A DNA stretch of 64,000 bases from the NCBI RefSeq assembly GCF_054482595.1, contig NZ_CM137008.1, one strand, 5' to 3'. Both the position numbers and the translations under genes were made by a program. The notes under the pieces are model-generated. The model worked only from the letters and a program-made list of their open reading frames with translations. It did not search any database and was not told where the DNA came from. Positions 3,992-63,700 of the stretch are shown here, in pieces; position 1 is the stretch's first letter, and the number at the start of each line of letters is the position of its first letter.

Positions 3992-4000
3992 CCGTGTTTA

Positions 4001-4027
4001 GCCCCGCTTCGGCGGGGCTTTGTTCTT
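4001..4027 (+). terminator. GC-rich hairpin (gccccgc-ttcg-gcggggc) followed by a T-run, between btsT and yjiX
   Basis: Perfect 7-bp stem with a 4-nt loop followed by tttgttctt, read directly. Confidence 0.6.
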
Positions 4028-4040
4028 ATCAGAGTGAACT

Positions 4041-4244
4041 ATGTTTGGTAACTTAGGACAGGCAAAAAAATATCTCGGCCAGGCGGCGAAGATGTTGATT
4101 GGCATTCCAGACTACGACAACTACGTCGAGCATATGAAGACCAACCATCCCGACAAGCCGTACATGAGCTATGAAGAATTCTTCCGCGAACGCCAGAACG
4201 CGCGCTACGGCGGCGATGGTAAAGGCGGTATGCGCTGTTGTTAA
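4041..4244 (+). CDS. yjiX: YbdD/YjiX-family small protein (DUF466), 67 aa
   Basis: ORF-track ORF immediately downstream of btsT, the conserved CstA-family partner arrangement. Confidence 0.85.
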
Positions 4245-4254
4245 TGGAGAGAGC

Positions 4255-5211
4255 ATGAACCCGATTGCAGTTACCCTACTCACCGGTTTTTTAGGCGCGG
4301 GCAAAACCACCCTGCTGCGCCATATTCTTAATGAACAACACGGCTACAAGATTGCCGTGATTGAAAACGAATTCGGCGAAGTCTCCGTTGATGATCAACT
4401 GATTGGCGACCGCGCCACGCAGATCAAAACGCTGACCAACGGCTGCATCTGCTGTTCGCGCTCCAACGAGCTGGAAGACGCACTACTCGACCTGCTGGAT
4501 AATCTCGACAAGGGCAATATTCAGTTCGACCGTCTGGTCATTGAATGCACCGGCATGGCCGATCCCGGCCCGATTATTCAGACCTTTTTCTCCCATGAGA
4601 TTTTATGCCAGCGTTACCTGCTGGACGGCGTGATTGCGCTGGTGGATGCGGTACATGCCGATGAGCAGATGAACCAGTTCACCATCGCCCAGTCCCAGGT
4701 TGGCTACGCCGACCGTATTCTGCTGACTAAAACCGACGTCGCAGGCGAAGCAGAAAAACTGCGCGAACGCCTGGCGCGCATCAACGCCCGTGCACCGGTC
4801 TACACCGTTACCCACGGCGACATCGACCTGGGCCTGCTGTTCAACACCAACGGTTTTATGCTGGAAGAAAACGTCGTCAGCACCAAACCGCGTTTCCACT
4901 TTATCGCGGATAAACAAAACGATATTTCGTCGATTGTGGTAGAACTGGATTACCCGGTAGATATCAGCGAAGTTTCCCGGGTGATGGAAAACCTGCTGCT
5001 GGAATCGGCGGATAAACTACTGCGTTACAAAGGGATGCTATGGATTGACGGCGAACCTAACCGCCTGCTGTTCCAGGGCGTCCAGCGCCTCTACAGCGCC
5101 GACTGGGACCGCCCGTGGGGCGATGAAAAACCGCATAGCACGATGGTGTTTATCGGGATTCAGCTGCCGGAGGAAGAGATTCGGGCGGCGTTTGCGGGGT
5201 TGAGGAAGTAA
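4255..5211 (+). CDS. yjiA: CobW/COG0523-family P-loop GTPase YjiA, 318 aa
   Basis: ORF 4171-5211 contains a GxxGxGKT P-loop (LLTGFLGAGKTTLL) and a CxCC motif (GCICCS). Start is taken at the ATG at 4255, which is preceded by GGAG and sits just after the yjiX stop. Confidence 0.9.
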   Translation: MNPIAVTLLTGFLGAGKTTLLRHILNEQHGYKIAVIENEFGEVSVDDQLIGDRATQIKTLTNGCICCSRSNELEDALLDLLDNLDKGNIQFDRLVIECTGMADPGPIIQTFFSHEILCQRYLLDGVIALVDAVHADEQMNQFTIAQSQVGYADRILLTKTDVAGEAEKLRERLARINARAPVYTVTHGDIDLGLLFNTNGFMLEENVVSTKPRFHFIADKQNDISSIVVELDYPVDISEVSRVMENLLLESADKLLRYKGMLWIDGEPNRLLFQGVQRLYSADWDRPWGDEKPHSTMVFIGIQLPEEEIRAAFAGLRK

Positions 5212-5534
5212 TCACCTTAACCTACTCATACGAAGCGGACGAGGATAAAATCCTTTCATTTTCCGTTCGCTTCATTATTTTATTTTCTTTCCAATGCCCA
5301 TTCAAATTAAAAATATAATTCTGCCATAATTTCCTGAACACAGATGTAATTACATTGCCACCTCTCATACTTCCATATGACTAGTCGTCCTATTGGGGCG
5401 TGATAGATGTATTAATTTCCAAATATGCAAACATTCTGATACAGTCCCAAAAAGAAAATTATTACCAACCCAGACAATCAGCAAATAAATTAATAACAAT
5501 TGAATTATAATCAACACGAATACAAGAGATTAAC

Positions 5535-7385
5535 ATGGCAACAATAATCCCAACAATCAGTAGCTGCAACGATAAAATTACTGCCGGAGAGAAAAGGCTG
5601 GCAAGAATTCTGGAAAGAGGACTAGGCGAAGAGTGCTGCTGTTGGTATGACATTCCCACGGGTGATAAGCATCTTCACCCAGATTTTATGATACTTTCGC
5701 CAGAAAAAGGCATTATTTTTCTCGAGGTAAAAGATTGGTTTATTACAAAAATAAAAAAAGCCAACAAGTCTAATGTTTTGTATGAGACACAAAATGGCAT
5801 TCAATCTTTAAAGAATCCGATAGAACAAGTTAGGCGATATGCTTTCGAAGCTGTAAACCAGTTAAAAAAAGACCCCCTATTGTGCCAACAGGAAGATCGT
5901 TACAATGGCAATCTTCTTTTCCCCTATGGATATGGCGTCTACTTTAGTAATATTACACGAGAAGCATTAAATAATAAATTTACTCAAGAAGAGCTGCTCG
6001 GGATCTTCCCATCAGATCTTATCATCTGCAAAGACGAACTAAATGAATTCATGTCAAAAGGGGATGTTTCATCCAAAATACATTCGTTGATTAAATATGA
6101 CTTCAAATGTCATGCTACACAAGAACAGTTGAACAGGATTAGATGGCACTTATACCCCGATGTCAGAATAGAAAGGGAAAAGAGAAGTAAAAACTGTGAT
6201 GAATTTAGTGTCGATGCACCAACCATCATTTCTATCCTGGATACTCAACAGGAACAACTTGCCAGAAGTATGAGAGACGGCCACCGAATAATTCATGGTG
6301 TTGCAGGTTCAGGTAAGACATTGATCCTCTATCATCGCTGTCAGGAATTAGCGAAAAAAAATGACAGCGAAAAGCCAATACTTGTCATTTGCTACAATAT
6401 TACTTTAGCCAAAAAACTTCGGTCGATGTTCATCAATCATCCCTTTGAAGAGAAAATAAAGGTTAATAATTTTCATGCTTGGTGTTTCCAACAAATTAAA
6501 AAAAACAAGATCACCATTCCAGAAGGGGATAATATTTTTGAAAATATGGAGCAAGCGTTGACTGATGGTTTCAACACAGGAAAAATAAAACCAGAACAAT
6601 ACAGCGCTGTATTAATTGATGAAGGACATGATTTTAAGCCCGAATGGTTAAAAATCCTGGCAAAAATGACTGACTCTCAGGACGAGAATTTGCTATTTCT
6701 TTATGATGATGCTCAGTCAATTTATCAAAAAAAGAAAGCATTAGACTTTACACTGTCCAGCGTGGATATTAAAGCGACAGGACGCACAACTATTCTTAAT
6801 ATAAATTATAGAAACACACAACAAATTCTACACTTTGCCAGTTGCATTGCATTTAATTATCTTAATAGCCATATCGATAGTTCTTTAACCTATCATAAAC
6901 CTGCTGCGGGAGGAATGAATGGCGATTATCCCAAGCTTGAACATTTCGACACACAGGACGAAGAAATAGCAAGAGCAGTCAAATGGATTACAGAGCAAAA
7001 TGAACAAGGGATTCCGTGGTCTGAAATTGCTATACTTAGTCCTTCAACTCACATCCTTTCTAACTCTCTAAGTTCTGTACTTGAATCGAAAAATATCCCC
7101 TTTAATCTTATTGTAAGCTCTGCAGATAAAAAGTCCTGGACGCCAGAACAAGAGCGTATTTCTGTTATGCCATTACCCAGCAGCAAAGGACTTGAGTTTC
7201 ACTCAGTTGTCATTATTGATGCAGCGAGAACACGGGATAATAGTGATGATTTGAGTGAGGATATAAAGAGACTCTATGTAGGTTTTACCCGAGCACGTTG
7301 CAATCTCTTGGTAACCTTGCACGGTGAAGGTGCGTTAAATGAGCATCTACTAAGAACCTATAAGCAAAGCCCACAATATATGTAA
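5535..7385 (+). CDS. NERD-domain / SF1 (UvrD-like) helicase fusion protein, 616 aa; candidate single-gene nuclease-helicase defence protein
   Basis: N-terminal NERD-like motif (GEKRLARILERGL ... HPDFMILSPEKGIIFLEVKDW). Helicase motifs: Walker A HGVAGSGKT, motif II VLIDEGHDF, KGLEFHSVVI, and C-terminal LYVGFTRAR. The gene is strongly AT-rich. Confidence 0.7.
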   Translation: MATIIPTISSCNDKITAGEKRLARILERGLGEECCCWYDIPTGDKHLHPDFMILSPEKGIIFLEVKDWFITKIKKANKSNVLYETQNGIQSLKNPIEQVRRYAFEAVNQLKKDPLLCQQEDRYNGNLLFPYGYGVYFSNITREALNNKFTQEELLGIFPSDLIICKDELNEFMSKGDVSSKIHSLIKYDFKCHATQEQLNRIRWHLYPDVRIEREKRSKNCDEFSVDAPTIISILDTQQEQLARSMRDGHRIIHGVAGSGKTLILYHRCQELAKKNDSEKPILVICYNITLAKKLRSMFINHPFEEKIKVNNFHAWCFQQIKKNKITIPEGDNIFENMEQALTDGFNTGKIKPEQYSAVLIDEGHDFKPEWLKILAKMTDSQDENLLFLYDDAQSIYQKKKALDFTLSSVDIKATGRTTILNINYRNTQQILHFASCIAFNYLNSHIDSSLTYHKPAAGGMNGDYPKLEHFDTQDEEIARAVKWITEQNEQGIPWSEIAILSPSTHILSNSLSSVLESKNIPFNLIVSSADKKSWTPEQERISVMPLPSSKGLEFHSVVIIDAARTRDNSDDLSEDIKRLYVGFTRARCNLLVTLHGEGALNEHLLRTYKQSPQYM

Positions 7386-7403
7386 AAATGATAAATTATC
7401 TCC

Positions 7404-7437
7404 ATAACGCCCGGTAACGCTGTACCGGGCGTTATGA
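7404..7437 (+). terminator. Perfect 14-bp inverted repeat hairpin downstream of the NERD-helicase gene
   Basis: cataacgcccggta-acgctg-taccgggcgttatg read directly; no strong T-run follows. Confidence 0.4.
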
Positions 7438-7626
7438 ATGCATATCTAAGATATTAGTCACGCATGATAGCCGCCACCAAAAACACCATCATCTCCCTCG
7501 CCTCTTTGCGGTGATAAAAGCGTACCATTTTGCTGTTAAATTCCAGCGTTTTAGCCGCTGGAATTAACAAGATCAAACTTCCGGCAACGAAGATTCAGTT
7601 ATTACAAATAATTACTGGAAAAAGAG

Positions 7627-7824
7627 ATGAAAAGCGTGGTTGACAACACATCGAAATATCCTGACTGGAGTAAACGCGATGATATTAAAGCGAAACTGAA
7701 AGTTGAACTTATTCTGCTTCTACACAAGCATAAGTTCCCGCCAGTAGCGAATGATGATGTTTATATGGGTGTGCTGGCACAGGTAGAGAATTTTAAAGAA
7801 CATCATATGAGTGCTTTAAATTAA
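7627..7824 (+). pseudogene. 65-aa ORF, possible C-terminal remnant of a displaced restriction-system gene (hypothesis only)
   Basis: Short ORF upstream of symE in the position occupied by hsd genes in K-12. The motif KRDDIKAKLKVELILLLHKHKFPPV resembles my recollection of type I HsdR C-terminal tails. Unverified. Confidence 0.25.
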
Positions 7825-7943
7825 TCATGAAGGCTGGATACACTTTGTTATCCGGCCATTGTGAATTAATGTTAATTTTTCTTCCAAATCTTTCCAATAA
7901 CGCTTTTATTATTTTCTATTTTTAGCTGGACTTTCCCTGTATT

Positions 7944-7963
7944 TACTGATGATATATCCAGAT
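7944..7963 (+). promoter_or_regulatory. LexA (SOS) box-like CTG-N10-CAG element upstream of symE
   Basis: TACTGATGATATATCCAGAT read directly about 78 bp upstream of the symE ATG; symE is a known SOS-induced gene. Confidence 0.5.
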
Positions 7964-7984
7964 ATTTAGCGCGGTGCGGATGTG

Positions 7985-8065
7985 CGCCAACACACCCGCA
8001 CCGCTCATCACAATCACTATTTTCAAGGAATAGCAGTTATGACTGACACGCATTCTATTGCACAA
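7985..8065 (-). ncRNA. symR: Expected position of SymR antisense sRNA (type I antitoxin) overlapping the symE 5' end; approximate coordinates
   Basis: Placed from the known symE/SymR arrangement, not from detected promoter or terminator signals. A 9-bp inverted repeat GCGGTGCGG/CCGCACCGC lies at 7971-8004. Confidence 0.3.
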
Positions 8066-8380
8066 CCGTTCGAAGCAGAAGTCTCCCCGGCAAATAACCG
8101 TCAATTAACCGTGAGTTATGCGAGCCGCTACCCGGATTGCAGCCGTATTCCCGCCATCACCCTGAAAGGTCAGTGGCTGGAAGCCGCCGGTTTTGCCACC
8201 GGCACAGCGGTAGATGTCAAAGTGATGGAAGGCTGTATTGTCCTCACAGCCCAACCACCCGCCGCCGAAGAGAGCGAACTGATGCAGTCGCTGCGCCAGG
8301 TGTGCAAGCTGTCGGCGCGTAAACAAAAGCAGATACAGGAATTTATTGGGGTGATTGCGGGTAAACAAAAAGTTGCCTGA
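8039..8380 (+). CDS. symE: SOS-induced toxin SymE (type I toxin-antitoxin), 113 aa
   Basis: Internal ATG at 8039 of ORF 7982-8380 gives [33 protein letters not shown]..., matching SymE. Confidence 0.85.
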
Positions 8381-8388
8381 TACATTGA

Positions 8389-8419
8389 CCCGGTAGCACC
8401 AGTGCTACCGGGTATTATT
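8389..8419 (+). terminator. Hairpin plus T-rich tail between convergent symE and the GmrSD-like gene
   Basis: cccggtagca-ccag-tgctaccggg followed by tattatt, read directly. Confidence 0.5.
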
Positions 8420-8426
8420 CGCCGCG

Positions 8427-10520
8427 TTATACCAACGCGCTCTCCATCTGTTTTTCAAATGCCTGACGAATTAATCCCATAATGTAAGGAAGTTGTGCGA
8501 GGTCGCTGAAACAAATTTCCACATCACCATTGCCCCATCGCCCAACATTTGTCACATCTTTGGCAATACCTTTCGGATCGACCAGTTCATGAAACTGCAT
8601 ATTAAGCGACAATCGCAGTCGGCTTTTTTGCGGCACAACATCAACAAAATTCGTTTCAGCTTTAAACGCAATATATAGCTTCAATACTTCCTGCGTGATC
8701 CCTGCGTCCAGGCGCATAACTTCATCGCGAAGATGATCGAATAACACCCGGCTATGCGAACCATCAGCAAGAAAAGGATAATCACTCAGGCTGTAACTGG
8801 TTTTGTTTTCAGGCTGCCCCCGATAAACAGCTAAAACCTCTTCAGAAAGAGAAGGCGCTTGCCAGACCTGAATCGCGAGATCGGCCAGACGATCGGCTCG
8901 GGCGTGAATGGCGGCTTCATCCCATTTTTCGCACTGTCCAAGACCGATATTCAAATAGAGCGGGCTATGCTTAAAGCCGTCTTCAATATCGCGTTTTTCC
9001 GCGAAAGGTCTGTCACTGTAGCGGGAGTTATAGCGCGTTAATGTGAGATTCCCCAACGTATGCAACAGTTCTTTATGAATGCGTTGCCAGTCACTTCCCA
9101 GCTCTTCACGCCATTTAGCCGACAAATTTTCGTTCTGCGGCATAATATGCTCAATCGTAAACTCTTCCACGCGCTCTCTGCGTTTATCGTTTTCCAGTCG
9201 TCGTAACCAGTAGCTGCGACTACGGAAGTTATAGAGATCGCGAACTTTTAATTCCCGTTTAAATTCATCATCGTTGGGGAAACGACGATATGAAGGTAGA
9301 TTCAAAAAATGTACCTGAATACTTTCCAGATAATTTTCTTTATTAATAACTTTATAAAAAGTGGCAAATGTCTTGTTCAAAGAATTTGTCGGAATTGCAC
9401 ATACTGCACGGCGGAAAACATAAGATTCAATTAAACGAATTATGCTCAGAAAATCTTCGTGAGACAAAACGCCATTTTTATAGTCATGATAAAGCGCCAG
9501 TAAGAAAGGATACGCCACATCGACCTTTAACTCGCGCAAATCCTGAAAAGCCGTAGCAAGCGATTTGTCACTTTCTTTTCCCAATGCCATTGCACAGTAA
9601 TACTCCGCGTAGATATGAATATCTTCAACCAGCCGATCTACGCCTTTTTCAGCAACACTCTGGCTGCGGGCATGGAGTTTAAATGCCTCATAGACTTCAT
9701 CTGTCCGAGGGATCTCCCCCGTTTTTACCGTCAGATAATGACGCATAAAACTGTCAAAATATTCGCTGTAACCTTGCTGACCAAAGGCGACTTCCATTGG
9801 ACGCCAGTGATCTTCATACAATCGGGTTTGATGCTCTGGTTCGAGGCCCATCAGAATAAAATTGCGCACCAGATCGGCCTGACTTAACGCCTTACCGGTG
9901 GAGTTCATACTTTCAAAAATCAGTTGCGGATTATCCTGACCACGATTAAGCGCCACATCGACAATTAATAACTTTGCTAACCCACGACATAAGGGGATCA
10001 AGTCATCACCGAGTTTGGCAATTTGTTCATCAAAGAAAGTAAAGTTTTCCATTATTCGATGGGAATAGTTTTCTGGCATTGGTCTTTGTTTTATTAACGC
10101 CAGTAAACTGTCTTTATCAGTCTCGGTCAGCAGTAATTTAAAACCTTTCTCGCCGGACTCATAAGGATTGAGCAAATAATAATTACGCAATTTCATTGCC
10201 GAAAAGCCATCAAAAACTTCGTCTTCGCCAAGATGGCGCGATAAAGCCTCAATCAGCAACATTGCGGTCGTCAGCCGCTGCTGACCATCAATGACCAGCA
10301 ACGGAGAAATACCAGAAACCTGATACAATCCCTGCTCTATATAAACAACCGAACCGATAAAATGCGCTGATATATCGTCACGCTTTCCTGCACGAATGAT
10401 GTCGTCCCAAAGTTGCCGACATTGTTGTTCTGTCCATGAATAAGTCCGTTGATAAATGGGAATAACAAACTGCTGCGAACGTTTTAAAAAATCGAGTAAG
10501 CGAGCTTCTGTAGCTTTCAT
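8427..10520 (-). CDS. DUF262 + DUF1524 (GmrSD-family) putative Type IV modification-dependent restriction endonuclease, 697 aa
   Basis: N-terminal DUF262/ParB-like motifs IPIYQRTYSW and VIDGQQRLTT. C-terminal His-Me finger/DUF1524-like motifs FTIEHIMPQ, GNLTL and YNS. Confidence 0.7.
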   Translation of the reverse strand: MKATEARLLDFLKRSQQFVIPIYQRTYSWTEQQCRQLWDDIIRAGKRDDISAHFIGSVVYIEQGLYQVSGISPLLVIDGQQRLTTAMLLIEALSRHLGEDEVFDGFSAMKLRNYYLLNPYESGEKGFKLLLTETDKDSLLALIKQRPMPENYSHRIMENFTFFDEQIAKLGDDLIPLCRGLAKLLIVDVALNRGQDNPQLIFESMNSTGKALSQADLVRNFILMGLEPEHQTRLYEDHWRPMEVAFGQQGYSEYFDSFMRHYLTVKTGEIPRTDEVYEAFKLHARSQSVAEKGVDRLVEDIHIYAEYYCAMALGKESDKSLATAFQDLRELKVDVAYPFLLALYHDYKNGVLSHEDFLSIIRLIESYVFRRAVCAIPTNSLNKTFATFYKVINKENYLESIQVHFLNLPSYRRFPNDDEFKRELKVRDLYNFRSRSYWLRRLENDKRRERVEEFTIEHIMPQNENLSAKWREELGSDWQRIHKELLHTLGNLTLTRYNSRYSDRPFAEKRDIEDGFKHSPLYLNIGLGQCEKWDEAAIHARADRLADLAIQVWQAPSLSEEVLAVYRGQPENKTSYSLSDYPFLADGSHSRVLFDHLRDEVMRLDAGITQEVLKLYIAFKAETNFVDVVPQKSRLRLSLNMQFHELVDPKGIAKDVTNVGRWGNGDVEICFSDLAQLPYIMGLIRQAFEKQMESALV

Positions 10521-57366: not shown

Positions 57367-60300
57367 TTACTCGCTAACCATCTTACTGAATAACTTCTCC
57401 AGATAAACGGGGCCTGTATCCTCAATAAAAAGCACATTTCTGGCTTCCAGATTTTCTTTTGAGTCAGGTACGTTTACTAAGTCAACATAACAAGTTTCAG
57501 AAACAATAAATGCACTTAATGATAAGTTATCATCCGATAATTTATGTTCAAGATTCTTAATTTCTTTATATAATCCGAACTTCGGATCATCAAGATTAAG
57601 ATTGCGAATGCCTTTTGGATCAATAAGACTTAGCCATTGTTTACCACTTTTATCATCGACTAACCACAATAAGAAATCCGGATAAAAATTACCCGCAGTA
57701 GCAAAGCCCAGGCCTTTATTTTTAGAATCCGCATTTCTTAGCAGATATAAACTTTTATCACCAATAATTTTCTGCCCTTTTGTCGAATCAACAAAAGACT
57801 GAAGATCCTGAACAAAAGTAATCTCGCTTGGCGCACCAAGTGCTGCCGGTCGCATTTTTAGCGGTATATTGGCATTTTTTTCAATCGAAAGAAGCGGGTA
57901 ATAGAGATGTTTATCAAAGGTAATAGCAACCATCCCGGATGCACTCCAGGATTTTGCTTTACCGATTTCGCCGTCGATGACCAATTGTTGTAATTGTTCC
58001 AGCCGACTGGCATAAGCCAACCCATCATCAGTTTCTTCGATCTCGAAATGGTACATTTTGATCATACCAGGATCATCTTCTTTCACCTGCGTGACTTCAT
58101 AAAACTGACCTTCATAAGCATTTTTCAAGGTGTTGTAAAAGCGATCAGTATAATCAGTCAGCAGACGAAGCATAATATCTTCCTGCTTAGCAATATCTGC
58201 ATATTGCTTAATCTCAAGCTCTGAAGCTGGAATCAAAAGGGTATACCAACTATTTCCGATCTTTGTCTTACCGGTACAAAAGTCGATCAAACGTTGTTTA
58301 TCCACACGTAAATTTGACCAGCCGCGTTGTAGTTTATAATTCTGAATGGCGAGATAAAGCCGATCAAAATCAAATGCACTAATGATTTTATAATCTAACT
58401 TCGCTTCATTGCGCACGTTAACCGGAGTATTGTCCCCTTTTCTGCTGGTATCAATCGACTCAAGTTTCGGGTATAAGTCCAGCTTAATATGCGGCTGCTT
58501 AATTTTCCCCTGAAAATCAGCAGGAACTTCATACAATTCAGGAAAATAGACACGTTTAAAGCCGAGTCTTTGATTATCTTTATAACCATCTTTAAGCTTA
58601 AGTGTTTTAAGCCTGGTTGCTGGCATATTTGGCCGAGTTTCAAAATTCAGCTCAAGGATCTCGTCACTTGGCGTAATCCCTTCATCTTCCAGGTATTGTT
58701 TAAAGGTTGCCATGTAATCGGCACGTACACCGAATACATTCAGTGTCTCTAATTTTTCCAGATGCAACCCTTTCGGACGCTCACCGGGTGTACTGCGTTT
58801 CAAAGAATAATTGCGACCTTTAAGGCGTACGCCACGACCAAATAACTGAATGATCTGTGAACCTTCTCCACGGCCCATATTGAGCAATCCCATCGTTGAG
58901 ACGCGCCAACTGCTCCAGCCTTCAGTAAATTTTCGCGAGCCGATCAAAATATGTAGTCGCGAGTCTTTGTCATTTAACGTATGAAAGAGTGACTTTGCAA
59001 AATCATCTCTCTGATAATCAAATGTCGTATCCTCTTCACACATTTTGTAAAGAGACGGTGCATCACCAATATTGATAAGGCCAAACGGTTCGGCCTCACC
59101 AACCTGTAATGCCAGTTCACCTTTACTGCCTATTAAATTCAGAACTCGCAGTCGCTGACCAGAGTGAGTGGTGTTAAACAAGCGAGAAAGAATATCTGCG
59201 TAGATATCTTCCGGAGCGTTCATTAGTGCAGTAAAGCGATTTTCAAAAATGTTACGCTCTTTGGTATCGAGGATTCGCGCTTTATTTTTAATGAGATCGT
59301 TAATCCACGCTTTTGCCTGCGTTTCGTGGTTTAAAAACCATGCTAAAAAACGCAATACTGCGTGAATGTCTGAATCTTCACCACTTACCGTATTACCGAC
59401 AAAAACCCACAGCGGTTTTTCGATATTAAATTCACTTAATTTTTCTTTATTCTTATTGAATAAATATTGTTGCTGATAAAAGCTGAGCAAACACGCGGTA
59501 AAATACTCATACCGACGCTCATCTTTTTTATCCTCTTCAGGATTAAGGTTAAGAATCAGTGATTCTTTACCATAACCATCCTCATAGAAGAATTTATAGG
59601 AGTAATCGAACAGAATCGATTTTCCATAGACCTCTCGCGTCGCCTGAATACGCGCATCTCGTTTTTCTTCGCTGGTTAATGCTATTTGCGCTAACTCTTC
59701 TTCGTTCAGTTTACCTAAGGCCGTTGTTTCAAAAAGCAGCTTTGCTTTTTTCTTCTGAATTTCTGTTTCAACTGCCTCAACATTATTGCCACCGGCTACT
59801 GCCTGGCCAAAAGTTGCTGAATATTCAAACGCAAATCCGTCACGTGTTAATTTGTCACGACGGCGCATCCAGGCACCAGCAGCACTTCCGGTGCCTTTAT
59901 GCCCTTCATCAATCAGAACCAGATTGTTGCCTTCAAATGCCTCAACGGCAACAGTTTTGTCACCCATTTCATCGGCAAGTTTATTGATATCAATAACTTC
60001 AATCGTGCCTTTGAAGGGCGCAGATTTACTCTTATCGAATAACTGGTATTGGGTAAATCCTGAGTTTTCCAGCTCATCTAAATGTTGCTTCGACAGGCGT
60101 TCATCCGGAGTAAGCAGGATGATTTTGTCGGGGTAATGGTGGGTATTACCGTTCTGGAAATAATGTAAGTATTGCAAAATATTGACATGCAATAGCAGTG
60201 TCTTACCAGAACCAGTAGCATTCCAGTATGCCAGTTTATTCAAATCATCCAGAATATATGATTTGAACTGATTAGCCCGGTCTTTTGCTGTTTTATCATT

Positions 60301-60747
60301 TTCAGCATTGTATGCTGCCAGCTCGTTATTTAGCCCATCGAGTAATTGCTGTTTACGATTGAAGTACCAGTCCAGGTAGATCTCGGTAAACAAAAGCGAC
60401 AAGTACTGAAAATATTTCATGTTCAGCACAGTGTCTTCTTTGCGATTACGGTGCTCAGTTATCTGCTGCCAGTGCTGCACGATATTGAGATCGTAACGAC
60501 GCAGTTCATCGAGATCGATAAGATCGACCTCGAATAAATAGTTACTCAGCTCATGGAAGAACAAACTTTGGCCATCCTCATGGATGCCTTCAAAGCGATC
60601 TTCACCTAACCGATTCTTCAGACCTTGCAATGTGCCATCTTTAAAAAAATGGAACATAAAGCGGTTCAAAACCAGTTGCTTATGAAAGCTCAGTTTGCTG
60701 TTTGTCTCTTTTTTAACAGCTTTACCGGTGGTCGGTTTTTTAGCCAT
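57367..60747 (-). CDS. Type III restriction Res-like subunit: SF2 helicase core with C-terminal PD-(D/E)XK nuclease motif, 1126 aa
   Basis: Motif I WNATGSGKT, motif II VLIDEGHKG, motif III SATFG, motif VI QLFGRGVRL; C-terminal YPDFLLWLVDD ... LIDPKG (PD ... DxK). Strong GGAGGAGG SD; start lies 2 nt after the Mod-like stop. Confidence 0.75.
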   Translation of the reverse strand: MAKKPTTGKAVKKETNSKLSFHKQLVLNRFMFHFFKDGTLQGLKNRLGEDRFEGIHEDGQSLFFHELSNYLFEVDLIDLDELRRYDLNIVQHWQQITEHRNRKEDTVLNMKYFQYLSLLFTEIYLDWYFNRKQQLLDGLNNELAAYNAENDKTAKDRANQFKSYILDDLNKLAYWNATGSGKTLLLHVNILQYLHYFQNGNTHHYPDKIILLTPDERLSKQHLDELENSGFTQYQLFDKSKSAPFKGTIEVIDINKLADEMGDKTVAVEAFEGNNLVLIDEGHKGTGSAAGAWMRRRDKLTRDGFAFEYSATFGQAVAGGNNVEAVETEIQKKKAKLLFETTALGKLNEEELAQIALTSEEKRDARIQATREVYGKSILFDYSYKFFYEDGYGKESLILNLNPEEDKKDERRYEYFTACLLSFYQQQYLFNKNKEKLSEFNIEKPLWVFVGNTVSGEDSDIHAVLRFLAWFLNHETQAKAWINDLIKNKARILDTKERNIFENRFTALMNAPEDIYADILSRLFNTTHSGQRLRVLNLIGSKGELALQVGEAEPFGLINIGDAPSLYKMCEEDTTFDYQRDDFAKSLFHTLNDKDSRLHILIGSRKFTEGWSSWRVSTMGLLNMGRGEGSQIIQLFGRGVRLKGRNYSLKRSTPGERPKGLHLEKLETLNVFGVRADYMATFKQYLEDEGITPSDEILELNFETRPNMPATRLKTLKLKDGYKDNQRLGFKRVYFPELYEVPADFQGKIKQPHIKLDLYPKLESIDTSRKGDNTPVNVRNEAKLDYKIISAFDFDRLYLAIQNYKLQRGWSNLRVDKQRLIDFCTGKTKIGNSWYTLLIPASELEIKQYADIAKQEDIMLRLLTDYTDRFYNTLKNAYEGQFYEVTQVKEDDPGMIKMYHFEIEETDDGLAYASRLEQLQQLVIDGEIGKAKSWSASGMVAITFDKHLYYPLLSIEKNANIPLKMRPAALGAPSEITFVQDLQSFVDSTKGQKIIGDKSLYLLRNADSKNKGLGFATAGNFYPDFLLWLVDDKSGKQWLSLIDPKGIRNLNLDDPKFGLYKEIKNLEHKLSDDNLSLSAFIVSETCYVDLVNVPDSKENLEARNVLFIEDTGPVYLEKLFSKMVSE

Positions 60748-60749
60748 TC

Positions 60750-63700
60750 TTAAACCTCCTCCGCAAACATCAGGTTCAAGAATTCAGGTTCGATCTGGCG
60801 GATTTTCAGGCTACGAACAATCTCGCCGTCTTCTTCATCAACGGTAAAGGCGGTAGGCAAGTTATGATCGCCATTGATATAGATAACGTCATACGTGTTT
60901 TCTTTTGCATACAAATCAAATCGGTTAGCATATTTATTCAATTCTTCATAACCGATCTTGTCGCAATCGCGCCACAGAATAAGGGTACGCTCGCCTGTTG
61001 GCAGCGTACCTTCAACACGCACATAGCCACGTTCGATATTGGATTCGATGGATTTCACATGTAATCCAATGAGATAGTTGAAAGTTTCAACTAAATCGAT
61101 GTTTTTACGCTCAGTGGCACCGGCGGAATCCGTCGCAATATCCATTTCGTAGTTAAATGGTTTTTTGAAATTATCGATTCCGAGAAAAGAATCTTTACTC
61201 TCATTTTTAATGAGATAATTTAATAGATAATCATTCCTCACATCTGAAGGCAATGTTTCGAAAAGATCTATGGGAGATTTTTTCAGTACTATATTATTTA
61301 AGCAATCTTCATAGCTTTCTAGTTTAATTGTTTTAAGAATATGTGATATACCGTTTTTATCCTGTGGATAACCTTTATTCCACTTATCGCTATAAACGGC
61401 TTTTACAATTCTAGCTTTTATAACTGAATCAGAATGTTCTCCCATTTCAACTAATATATATTTATGATCTTCAGATTTTTCTCTATTTCTATTAATAACA
61501 GCATGTGCGGTGGTTCCACTGCCGCCAAAAAGATCGACTATGGTTTCATTATTAGCACTATGCCATACTGAATCAATAACGCGTTCCATAGTACCTAAGG
61601 ATTTTGGATAAGAAAACAAACCTGCAGAGCCAAACATGGACGTTAATAAATTTGTGCCACCTATGGTAGCATTATATTGTGATCCTTGCCAAATACTAGG
61701 AAGCAGTAACCTTCTTGCGCTATCATGATATAATCTGTTTATGACAAATTTGTTTGAACTTACCAATTCACCTACTTCAATTGCTTTTTTAGCCCCTTCA
61801 TAAGAAAGCGACCAAACTCTTTCTTCCCCATTCTCACCAATGGGATAGACTCTTTTTAAACCTTCTTTGGTTTCACCTACCGGATAATTACCTTTTTCTA
61901 AAGGAACAGGTGGTGGTTCGACTCCTTTAACTTCAAATGTATCAGGGTCAACCAAAACTGCAAAAAAGCTTTCTGGACGACCAGGATTACCAATCCTAAA
62001 ATTATTATCTCCGGTACCAGCTCTTCTAAAACCTCTAGTTCGAATTCCATCCTCCACACTATCCCCTTTGAGAATATCCATTCCTTCTGGTATAGAAAAC
62101 AGACAATATTCATGTGTTCTCGAAACATTTGTTCTACCTGTCCCAGACCCAGGATAGTGCTCAACGATACATTGTAAAACCTCTCTTTCTGGATTGATAC
62201 TTTTTTCCAATTCTTTTAAAAGAGACATTTCTGTATCATCAATAGCATAACAAAAAACACCGTTATTATTTAATAGTTTTTTAGATAAAATGATTCTATC
62301 AGCCATTAATGTAGCCCATGAAGAATCCTTATATCCATTTTTATATAAGATAGGAGTTGCATCAGTATTATATGGTGGATCAAGATATATTATGCTTGTA
62401 CTTTTATCAAACTTAGTCTCAAGGATTTTTAGGGCTTGATAATTTTCAGAGTTGACCAATAGCCCATTAATCTCATTATCAATATTATCAATTGATCGAA
62501 TCAGTTCACATTTAAATTTAGAATCAAAAAAAGTAGTATCAACCATCAGATATGGTGAACTCTTGAGAAATTTCATATCCCGAGAGTTATGCTGTTGAAA
62601 TAGACCTAGCGTACTCCAATGTTTAAATTGTTTATCATTTACTAATATAGTTTGATAAAGAGCATCTGGAATTCTATCTAAAGTAATACAGTATTCCGTA
62701 GAAACAACAAACTTCTTCTTAGTCCAAAGTTTTTTCTGGAAATTCTCAATTTGTGCCAAAAATGTAATGAGTTCCAGTGCAACAGTACGCAAACATTGAA
62801 TCATGCGCAATTGTTTCTCAATATTGGCAAACACTTCTGCATTTTGCACATTATCGAGATTCATTACTTCATTTTTAATATAAAAATCCAGTTCGTTCGT
62901 TAAAAAACCACCGAGATCTTTATGGATAAAGTAGTCTGCTGTATTACGCTGGGTATAAGTTGTAAGGTGACGCTCCAACTCTGTACGTGACGGATTTTTT
63001 TCTGTTGGCGCACGTTTAGCAAGATCAACCCAATGCTGTTGAACTGTTTTATCTGCCAGAATTGTTGAAATAGCGGACTGTACTAAAGCATCCTGCTTAG
63101 TGCCCTTTTTCATTGCCTTATATTCGAAGTGAATAACTAACTCTTCTGTTTCAACGAGTTTACCGTCCACCACAGATGAGTTTTTCACCACTTCTACTGG
63201 CTTATATTCTTGTTCATACTCATCACCTTCTTCATCAATTTTGGTACGAACATGTGGCTCAATAAGTACAAAGCAGCGATCTAATTCATTATCCTTACGG
63301 TTATCTTTTGCTGTGTCCGCTGCGAGCAATTTAAAGCTAACTTTACGACCATCATCTAATTTAAATGAATAATTAGCAAAGTTTTCGCCACTTTTAATGT
63401 AGTACTGGTCCTTATTTGCCCAGTGCAACATCACTTCTTCGCCAGAATAAGGGATGGCGTAGGTATTACCTTTATAACGGCGTTTGCTGATAAAATCGCC
63501 GTTGTCATAATAACGAGAAAAGAAAGTGAGCAGATGGGAAAATACTGCATTTTCATGCTCATTTGCTCCGGATGCCATAGCCGCCAGTTGCTTTTTAAGC
63601 TCCTGTACTTTCGGGCTATCAGCAGGGTCCACACCCGCATCAGTTGCCGCTTTTATTGTCAGTTGCAACTGATGTTCTAATTCTGATTTATTGGCATTTC

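Follow-up and report, generated by a model that had tools for sequence, protein, structure and literature searches.

Nhi, the product of SERP2475 in Staphylococcus epidermidis, is a defence protein whose single gene protects the cell and in which an HsdR-like PD-(D/E)XK N-terminus and a superfamily 1 (SF1) helicase are joined in one polypeptide (10.1101/776245). The helicase of Nhi is DUF2075/SF1B-like, as in Dda, Upf1 and Dna2, and the protein carries an extra C-terminal Glyas_Bleomycin-R domain (10.1101/776245). Its isolated N-terminus nicks DNA and degrades it in the 3′-5′ direction, and the full-length protein appears to be autoinhibited (10.1101/776245). Nhi is rare, horizontally spread, partly plasmid-borne and often found near defence genes (10.1101/776245). 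Here, we describe a gene with the same general layout, located at positions 5535 to 7385 of a 64,000-nucleotide stretch of Escherichia coli chromosome (contig NZ_CM137008.1 of assembly GCF_054482595.1; this whole stretch is hereafter the window). The gene encodes a 616-amino-acid (aa) protein made of an N-terminal NERD nuclease module and a C-terminal UvrD-like helicase, which we regard as a candidate stand-alone defence effector.

Two families of the same composition have been catalogued. Cluster 187 of Shah et al. (2018, RNA Biol) has three members, with Dole_0738 as the representative, that lie beside type III-A/B cas modules; it was annotated as 'NERD+UvrD' and proposed as a type III CRISPR accessory in a paper that reports no experiment on it (PMC6546367). 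This cluster is represented in PADLOC as C3a187 (PDLC01087). Cluster 485 of Mestre et al. (2022), represented in PADLOC as RTasNERD-Hel (PDLC03813), has an N-terminal NERD domain and a C-terminal helicase and is adjoined by a UG34 reverse transcriptase (RT) in 7 of 17 cases (PMC9226505); this UG34-associated family is likewise uncharacterised.

The E. coli protein matches C3a187 over nearly its full length (aa 1-597 against profile positions 1-545 of 559, E 4.7e-141), and the two share the same fusion of NERD and UvrD domains. Judged by sequence, its correct family label is the NERD+UvrD family, PADLOC C3a187, catalogued but uncharacterised. The next-best full-length match is to the UG34 NERD-helicase (aa 1-594 against positions 1-510 of 519, E 7.8e-23), which is far weaker than that to C3a187. 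In contrast to the loci from which both families were described, the E. coli locus contains neither cas genes nor an RT. Additionally, none of 38 immediate neighbours of the gene in 23 loci matched Cas or RT models. Thus, the link to CRISPR is at best occasional.

The features of the gene and of its product are as follows.

5535..7385, plus strand: NERD-UvrD nuclease-helicase coding sequence, ATG start, 616 aa, intact
5535..6158, plus strand: nuclease module, NERD / PD-(D/E)XK fold with a conserved extension, aa 1-208
5682-5684, 5724-5726 and 5730-5732, plus strand: predicted catalytic codons of D50, E64 and K66, respectively, from the alignment
6159..6245, plus strand: flexible linker between nuclease and helicase, aa 209-237, with a predicted local distance difference test score (pLDDT) <50
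6240..7334, plus strand: UvrD-like SF1A helicase core, aa 236-600, from Pfam, invariant motifs and Foldseek
6315-6317, plus strand: codon of the Walker A lysine K261, within GVAGSGKT 255-262 (GSGKT 258-262)
6618-6623, plus strand: codons of the motif II residues D362-E363, within DEGH 362-365

The start codon of this open reading frame (ORF) is supported by its homologues, which align from residue 1 (MAxxIP). The coding sequence is 100% identical in DNA to that of RefSeq WP_021557503.1, which has been named '3′-5′ exonuclease' or 'nuclease-related domain-containing DEAD/DEAH box helicase'. Pfam matches, alignments and an AlphaFold2 model built from the family alignment agree on an N-terminal NERD/PD-(D/E)XK nuclease module, a disordered linker and a C-terminal UvrD-like SF1A helicase; the model has a mean pLDDT of 79.9, with two confident modules flanking the disordered linker. 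The length of the linker differs among homologues, and alignment columns 219-245 are gapped and variable. An earlier note, made from the letters of this DNA, had described a 616-aa fusion of a NERD-type domain with a complete SF1 helicase, encoded by an AT-rich gene in a restriction hotspot, and our analyses bear out each part of this description. The four motif strings that it listed (GSGKT, DEGH, KGLEF and VGFTRAR) are all present and are invariant in a 30-member family alignment. The gene has a G+C content (GC) of 37.7%, with 33.9% at third codon positions, compared with 54.7% and 56.1% in the adjacent core genes yjiA and btsT, respectively. The hotspot is the immigration control region (ICR), in which the gene comes directly after yjiA.

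Conservation was judged in the 30-member family alignment (41-64% identity) and in a second alignment of 44 N-terminal regions from a wider set of phyla. Pfam NERD (PF08378) matches aa 17-110 with an E-value of 3.8e-8, and the same domain is found among the precomputed assignments of nearly all homologues. Residues D50, E64 and K66, which constitute the D...(D/E)xK triad, are invariant in both alignments, and G18, E19 and Q98 are likewise invariant or nearly so. The N-terminal module is predicted to adopt a restriction-endonuclease-like alpha/beta fold (module pLDDT 89.7). The comparison list for the anatomy of the protein, whose figures are unlabelled, includes two ancillary nucleases of type III CRISPR systems, Can2 (8.2) and Can1 (7.3), as well as NucS (8.2), BpuSI (7.9), Shedu SduA (7.3), McrC (7.1), Upx (7.0), an HsdR fragment (6.6) and Hna (5.6). 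Past the Pfam NERD boundary, the N-terminal module continues to aa 208 and ends in a strongly conserved element at aa 198-211 (positions 6126-6167 of the window), which contains Q198, R201, R203, W204, P208 and R211 ('RIRWHLYPEIRI'). Part of this element is the RIRWHLYP sequence at aa 201-208, just before the disordered linker. The element might serve in DNA binding or in docking onto the helicase.

The helicase module contains the complete UvrD-type motif set, i.e., motifs I, Ia, II, III, IV, V and VI. In addition to Walker A and motif II, we located motif III at DDAQSIY 391-397 (invariant pattern Y390-D-D-x-Q394), motif IV at NYRNT 424-428 (Y425 and R426 invariant), motif V at SSKGLEF 549-555 and motif VI at YVGFTRAR 581-588 (Y581-V-G-x-T-R-A587 invariant). 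Within aa 236-596, Pfam identified AAA_19 (1.9e-9), UvrD_C (9.6e-9 and 3.6e-8), UvrD-helicase (2.5e-6) and UvrD_C_2 (6.4e-5). The top solved structures found by Foldseek were UvrD, PcrA, Rep and SLFN11, all with E-values of ~1e-15. By sequence, the nearest solved structure in a phmmer search of the PDB was PcrA (E 1.5e-9), with UvrD and HelD as further, distant matches; neither this search, which returned no close relative, nor the fold search, which returned generic SF1 or SLFN structures, provided a solved structure of a close relative. Our reading of the model is that of a compact core, in which ~70 residues separate motif Ia from motif II (a short 1B region) and the stretch from motif IV to motif V has essentially no 2B insertion.

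The search of hidden Markov model and defence profiles that the earlier note had called for thus led to the full-length C3a187 match. The same note had named clear orthology to a housekeeping helicase as one result that would speak against a defence protein. When the sequence was compared with the NCBIfam equivalogs, no such orthology was found: all 19 matches, among candidates that included UvrD, PcrA, Rep, HelD, helicase IV, RecB, AddA and PriA, fell far below their cut-offs. The best scores were 38-57 bits, against curated cut-offs of 419-1144, e.g., 57.2 bits against 965 for UvrD, 55 against 911 for PcrA, 54 against 419 for HelD and 30 against 696 for RecB. RecB and AddA resemble the present protein in that a UvrD-like SF1A motor and a PD-(D/E)XK nuclease are carried on one chain, and they act on DNA ends. 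They differ in that their nuclease is C-terminal and of the RecB type, their chains are ~1,200 aa long and their partners in a complex are RecC/RecD or AddB; the NCBIfam RecB/AddA scores of our protein were 26-30 bits, against cut-offs of ~700.

The proposed likeness to nuclease-helicase immunity proteins held in part. The protein shares with Nhi an N-terminal PD-(D/E)XK nuclease and a C-terminal SF1 helicase on one chain, a likeness of layout only, and it may also act alone. Nevertheless, it is not a member of the Nhi family: the Nhi profile (PDLC02372) matched just aa 235-435 (profile positions 183-338 of 470, E 4.6e-9), and the present motor is SF1A and UvrD-like, with NERD as the nuclease. 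DUF2075 (PF09848) gave an E-value of 2.2e-4, weaker than those of the UvrD-type profiles, and motifs III-VI are UvrD-like.

Other known systems that contain related domains were compared in the same manner. GajB of Gabija is also a UvrD-like SF1A helicase used in defence, and GajB profiles matched with E-values of up to 8.4e-21; the GajB structure 8sm3_B was at Foldseek rank 44. GajB itself lacks a nuclease domain and relies on GajA, a separate ATPase-TOPRIM nuclease. Membership of GajB was discarded: the profile matches were partial (e.g., aa 355-525), and the flanking yjiA and hsdR remnant gave no GajA match. Membership of AbiO, PD-T4, PD-Lambda and PD-T7 was also discarded, as these gave partial PADLOC matches to the helicase domain or none. 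The Schlafen proteins of group III, such as human SLFN11 and SLFN14, likewise combine an N-terminal nuclease with a C-terminal SF1 helicase-like domain and are antiviral. Among solved structures, SLFN11 matched best, whether the whole model or the N-terminal module was compared (identity 9-11%, TM-score 0.39). In contrast, no Schlafen-core Pfam match was obtained, with just a weak match to SLFN-g3_helicase (E 2.2e-4), and the helicase motifs of our protein are of the UvrD type and not of the DUF2075 type. The Schlafen resemblance is one of fold and layout, not of demonstrated common descent.

The ICR is the earliest defence island to have been described in E. coli and corresponds to 'hotspot 36' of a pangenome survey (PMC12707154). 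The window is E. coli chromosome, and its positions 4000-9000 are 100% identical to several complete genomes. Based on the annotation of one of these genomes, the gene order is btsT, yjiX, yjiA, the NERD-UvrD gene, a pseudogene fragment of the hsdR C-terminus, symE, a gene for a GmrSD-type enzyme, yjiS, yjiR and a gene for an Rpn nuclease. In a blastn comparison with MG1655, homology breaks off precisely at the yjiA stop codon (5211) and returns at 7908, just before symR/symE. In K-12, the same site is occupied by mrr-hsdR-hsdM-hsdS (~7.9 kb). The features of the cassette and of the genes next to it are the following.

5212..7907: variable ICR cassette, 2.7 kb, 33-38% GC versus ~55% in the flanks
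5212..5534, plus strand: intergenic region upstream of the NERD-UvrD gene, 323 bp, 32.8% GC
7401..7438: near-perfect inverted repeat with a 16-pair stem and a 6-nt loop, 16 nt past the stop codon
7627..7824, plus strand: HsdR C-terminal remnant of 65 codons, PADLOC REase_I positions 967-1027 of 1029, E 2.4e-22
7968-8044, minus strand: symR antitoxin RNA, Rfam RF01809, 91.7 bits, overlapping the 5′ end of symE
8039-8380, plus strand: symE, NCBIfam SymE E 7.4e-68, forming a toxin-antitoxin pair with symR
8427..10520, minus strand: GmrSD-type type IV restriction enzyme (DUF262 + DUF1524), 697 aa, intact, PADLOC Orf5 E 2e-223, mREase_IV

Upstream of the gene, a perfect -10-like TATAAT is found at 5506-5511 and a purine-rich AAGAGA at 5524-5529, 5 nt 5′ of the ATG; both are consensus matches only. 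Scans for promoters and terminators gave results no better than those obtained with shuffled sequence. No alignment was obtained between the 323-bp upstream region and the sequences that precede the Leclercia, Enterobacter, Citrobacter and Salmonella orthologues. A search of the upstream region for a small ORF or RNA returned just short unconserved ORFs, and the sole significant Rfam match in positions 5000-8500 was symR. Downstream of the gene, the inverted repeat may form a hairpin at the transcript end, and the plus-strand sequence has no clear T-tract there. The repeat is kept with substitutions (~88% identity on self-match) in the allele of strain E2348/69. Repeats of the kind that delimit mobile cassettes were also looked for; the window contains no second good copy of the hairpin arm (7403-7436), and the cassette segment has no annotated integrase or transposase.

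The HsdR remnant, annotated in RefSeq as a partial pseudogene, is the scar of an earlier occupant of the site. In the window the hsdR remnant lies directly upstream of symE, whereas in K-12 it is hsdS that abuts symE; therefore, the gene order or the family of the lost type I system may have been different. The GmrSD-type enzyme occupies the place of mcrBC. An Eco94GmrSD has been described in the ICR (PMC12707154), and the enzyme of the window is probably the Eco94GmrSD-like enzyme reported to replace mcrBC in some strains. It is not tied to the helicase gene, since the E2348/69 locus lacks it. The GmrSD-type gene is annotated as two pieces in strain XH990, whose sequence otherwise equals that of the window over 4000-9000. 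Separately, the C-terminal ~100 residues of this enzyme match the PADLOC candidate PDC-S18 (E 1.2e-24).

We found the NERD-UvrD gene in 100 of 5,426 complete E. coli genomes (1.8%), with one chromosomal copy in each. All 100 carriers share the yjiA-gene-symE context, i.e., the gene is always at the ICR. Among them are the reference enteropathogenic E. coli strain E2348/69 and the environmental strain SMS-3-5; at the ICR of E2348/69, the NERD-UvrD gene is the only defence-like gene left besides symE. Two alleles, ~98% identical, occur in E. coli and differ by 21 synonymous and 17 non-synonymous substitutions. The resulting ratio of non-synonymous to synonymous substitution rates (dN/dS) of 0.20 indicates that the gene is under purifying selection and is maintained. 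None of the 17 residue changes affects a catalytic or helicase-motif residue. The E2348/69 allele (L014:9001-10851) carries D113A and P114R, and D113 is invariant in the 30-sequence alignment.

Beyond E. coli, the family is large. At 90% identity, the clusters that match with E<=1e-10 number more than 7,000, and at 50% identity, 505 clusters match with E<=1e-30; nearly all of the latter are 590-650 aa in length, align end to end and have the same architecture. The orthologues in Enterobacteriaceae are ~57-64% identical and share this hotspot. Those of Leclercia, Enterobacter, Citrobacter and Salmonella immediately follow yjiA, and that of Klebsiella aerogenes follows yjiR, at the opposite end of the region. 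The Salmonella copy follows a brnTA pair and precedes hsdS fragments. Between genera, the coding region alone aligns (~65-70% nucleotide identity), with yjiA at 83-86%. Directly downstream of the Leclercia gene, the yjiA 3′ end (CobW_C) is present a second time as a partial copy (L002:9957-10235 and L003:9972-10442), which looks like a trace left when a cassette was inserted or exchanged through recombination at yjiA.

Homologues at 38-43% identity were identified in other Gammaproteobacteria, Betaproteobacteria, cyanobacteria, Verrucomicrobia, Nitrospirae, Nitrospinae, Chloroflexi and other groups, and horizontal transfer is the best explanation for this spread over several phyla. Plasmid-borne homologues were found on E. 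coli conjugative IncF plasmids (39% identity), a Vibrio harveyi MOBF plasmid, Nostoc plasmids and a Ralstonia megaplasmid. A phage origin was considered and discarded: tblastn against 50,697 phage records gave just two partial matches, at 29% identity.

To look for partners, the ORFs within four genes of the NERD-UvrD gene at 84 loci were clustered by all-against-all BLASTP. No partner is conserved across these loci; the largest neighbour family was present in 7 loci, scattered and with no fixed position or orientation. This result fits a single-gene unit and supports the single-gene reading that had been suggested for the E. coli protein, with an exception in the Vibrionaceae. In 4 of 5 Vibrionaceae species, a gene for a ~192-aa class-I S-adenosylmethionine-dependent (SAM) methyltransferase lies divergently upstream of the NERD-UvrD gene, in a head-to-head arrangement. 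A third gene encodes either a PLD-SNF2 protein (type IV restriction models, E 2e-94) or an HNH/HNH_2 protein, and the wider context differs; in Aliivibrio, the methyltransferase is fused to an HNH domain. The corresponding positions are given below.

L008:7245-7820, L010, L017:7076-7684, L018/L019, L104:1883-3583 and L106:4190-4768: Vibrionaceae loci

The fifth Vibrionaceae species has no methyltransferase, and this module is found neither in E. coli nor in 81 of the 84 clustered loci. The methyltransferase and the third gene may constitute a clade-specific multi-gene module. Because the Vibrionaceae gene usually travels with the methyltransferase, single-gene status may not hold in every clade.

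The defence context was surveyed in 23 taxonomically spread loci, with four ORFs sampled per locus and compared with PADLOC models at E<1e-8. Among the immediate neighbours, 8 of 38 matched, including Menshen NsnB (1.3e-67), PD-Lambda-1 (6.9e-86), a type IV restriction endonuclease (5e-112), a fragment of a type III methyltransferase, a SIR2/pAgo-associated protein and PDC-S44. The ORFs at a distance of 6-10 kb matched in 7 of 40 cases, among them DISARM DrmB (6e-79), Septu PtuA (5e-31), a type IIG restriction-modification enzyme (1e-82), MADS mad3 (5e-53) and HEC-01B (1e-65). These distant ORFs were meant as a control; as they matched as often as the neighbours, we take them as further evidence of defence islands and not as background. 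In total, at least 10 of the 23 loci had a convincing defence gene among the four sampled ORFs.

Other parts of the window also contain genes that are related to defence or that appear to be acquired. Its far end reaches a second defence island near leuX, 'hotspot 37'.

19196-21523, plus strand: ORF of 775 aa, 31-39% GC, annotated as a pentapeptide-repeat protein in a near-identical genome
55776-56705, plus strand: HNH protein, annotated in a near-identical genome as a phosphorothioate-DNA-binding restriction endonuclease
57367-60747, minus strand: helicase-type restriction subunit of 1126 aa, PADLOC type III restriction-modification, E 0
60750-63884, minus strand: methyltransferase of 1044 aa, PADLOC type III restriction-modification, E 0

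In strain XH990, an SNF2-related gene is next after these hotspot 37 genes. The 775-aa ORF, between yjiL and yjiK, gave no PADLOC match and looks like another horizontally acquired insert.

Taken as a whole, we favour the reading in which the NERD-UvrD protein would be a stand-alone nuclease-helicase defence effector directed against invading DNA, i.e., phages and possibly plasmids; we give this reading a probability of roughly 0.55 and hold its details with less confidence. A defence role is favoured because the catalytic centres are intact, the gene is accessory and mobile, its site is a hotspot, where it stands in place of a type I/type IV set, it has no conserved partner and its neighbourhood is rich in defence genes. 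The protein would work like Nhi, built from other parts. In the proposed mechanism, the UvrD-like SF1A motor would load at free or branched DNA ends or on single strands, for instance in phage replication or recombination intermediates or in entering plasmid DNA, and would translocate 3′→5′ and unwind. The NERD PD-(D/E)XK site, tethered by the linker, would nick or degrade the displaced strand, with the nuclease possibly held in check until the motor engages. For the DNA substrate, the loading and the 3′→5′ polarity, this proposal draws on the homology to UvrD-type and PD-(D/E)XK proteins and on the precedent of Nhi.

Several observations weigh against this reading. The literature searched contained no experimental test of any family member, and the protein is not among the E. 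coli systems validated in the DefensePredictor study; the 'NERD' system of that study is a different protein, 532 aa long and UpxA-like. Nothing in the sequence accounts for the sparing of self DNA. DNA as the substrate is not certain, since one recently described NERD protein cleaves RNA. Indiscriminate action against plasmids is disfavoured by the homologues that are carried on conjugative plasmids themselves. As for the neighbourhood, a few per cent of the genes in bacteria are generally devoted to defence, and by this general expectation the rate of defence neighbours looks like an enrichment, in a survey that had no true genomic background. Additionally, about half of the sampled loci have no PADLOC match among their four ORFs, and many homologues sit amid ordinary metabolic genes.

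The evidence was also weighed for other functions. The protein could be an accessory DNA repair or recombination enzyme that acts on host forks, breaks or flaps in the manner of AddA/RecB, Dna2 or helicase IV. We consider this unlikely, and rank it ahead of the remaining alternatives: scores against repair families fall short of the curated cut-offs by a factor of 7 or more, just 1.8% of E. coli genomes carry the gene, which is low in GC and lies in a restriction hotspot, and its distribution is patchy across phyla and includes plasmids, whereas repair genes are normally core and vertically inherited. Ranked next, and in our view improbable, is an effector that depends on a partner and is an inactive orphan in E. 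coli, the partner being type III CRISPR, a UG34 RT or the methyltransferase plus nuclease of the Vibrionaceae. The definition of C3a187 from copies beside type III-A/B cas genes, the same-architecture family that accompanies UG34 RTs, and the methyltransferase with PLD-SNF2 or HNH proteins in 4 of 5 Vibrionaceae species all speak for such a dependence. However, C3a187 is based on just three members, the E. coli gene is not flanked by cas, RT or methyltransferase genes, the 84 loci have no conserved neighbour family in common and the 38 sampled neighbours included no Cas or RT match; moreover, an intact ORF with a dN/dS of 0.20 would be unexpected for a useless orphan.

The structural matches raise a further alternative, in which the protein would be a Schlafen-like abortive-infection RNase whose helicase senses single-stranded nucleic acid of the phage and whose NERD domain cuts tRNA or other RNA, so that translation stops. 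SLFN11 as the top structural match for the whole protein and for the nuclease module, together with the report of a NERD protein that cleaves RNA, is consistent with it; the UvrD-type helicase motifs and the lack of a Schlafen-core Pfam match, described above, set the protein apart from the Schlafen group, and we regard this function as less probable again. Lowest in our ranking is a role in the competition or maintenance of mobile elements, either by processing DNA ends during transfer or by excluding rival elements. Such a role would agree with the homologues on conjugative IncF and MOBF plasmids, on Nostoc plasmids and on the Ralstonia megaplasmid, with those that adjoin toxin-antitoxin, recombinase or relaxase genes and with one Vibrio copy that abuts a P2-like prophage. 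Nevertheless, all 100 E. coli copies are chromosomal and lie in one non-mobile hotspot, in a cassette with no integrase or transposase, and the phage records gave no match beyond the two partial ones. As defence genes are commonly plasmid-borne too, the plasmid evidence does not separate this role from the defence effector that we favour.

A broader proposal, which we offer as a doubtful one, is that the NERD+UvrD family would be a widespread innate immune system made of a single protein, with ~500 clusters at 50% identity in at least six phyla. It would represent a modular effector that has been plugged in repeatedly, with type III CRISPR, with UG34 RTs, with the methyltransferase-nuclease pairs of the Vibrionaceae and, alone, in the enterobacterial hotspot. 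By convergence or distant descent, it might be the counterpart of a Schlafen-11-type sensor-effector, in which the motor would read single-stranded replication intermediates of phages and license the nuclease.

To a specialist, another nuclease-helicase in a defence island would be no surprise. If the protein proves inert alone, the focus moves to the readings with a type III CRISPR, RT or Vibrio methyltransferase partner. If the stand-alone effector is correct, a compact single-gene system of ~1.9 kb would join Nhi, Gabija, Hachiman, Druantia DruE and DdmD, with a UvrD-type motor and a NERD nuclease, in place of the parts of Nhi, as the new combination. It would also provide a function for a large family whose members are now labelled, misleadingly, '3′-5′ exonuclease', 'AAA family ATPase' or 'DNA helicase II', and would explain what occupies the ICR in strains without hsd, mrr and mcrBC.

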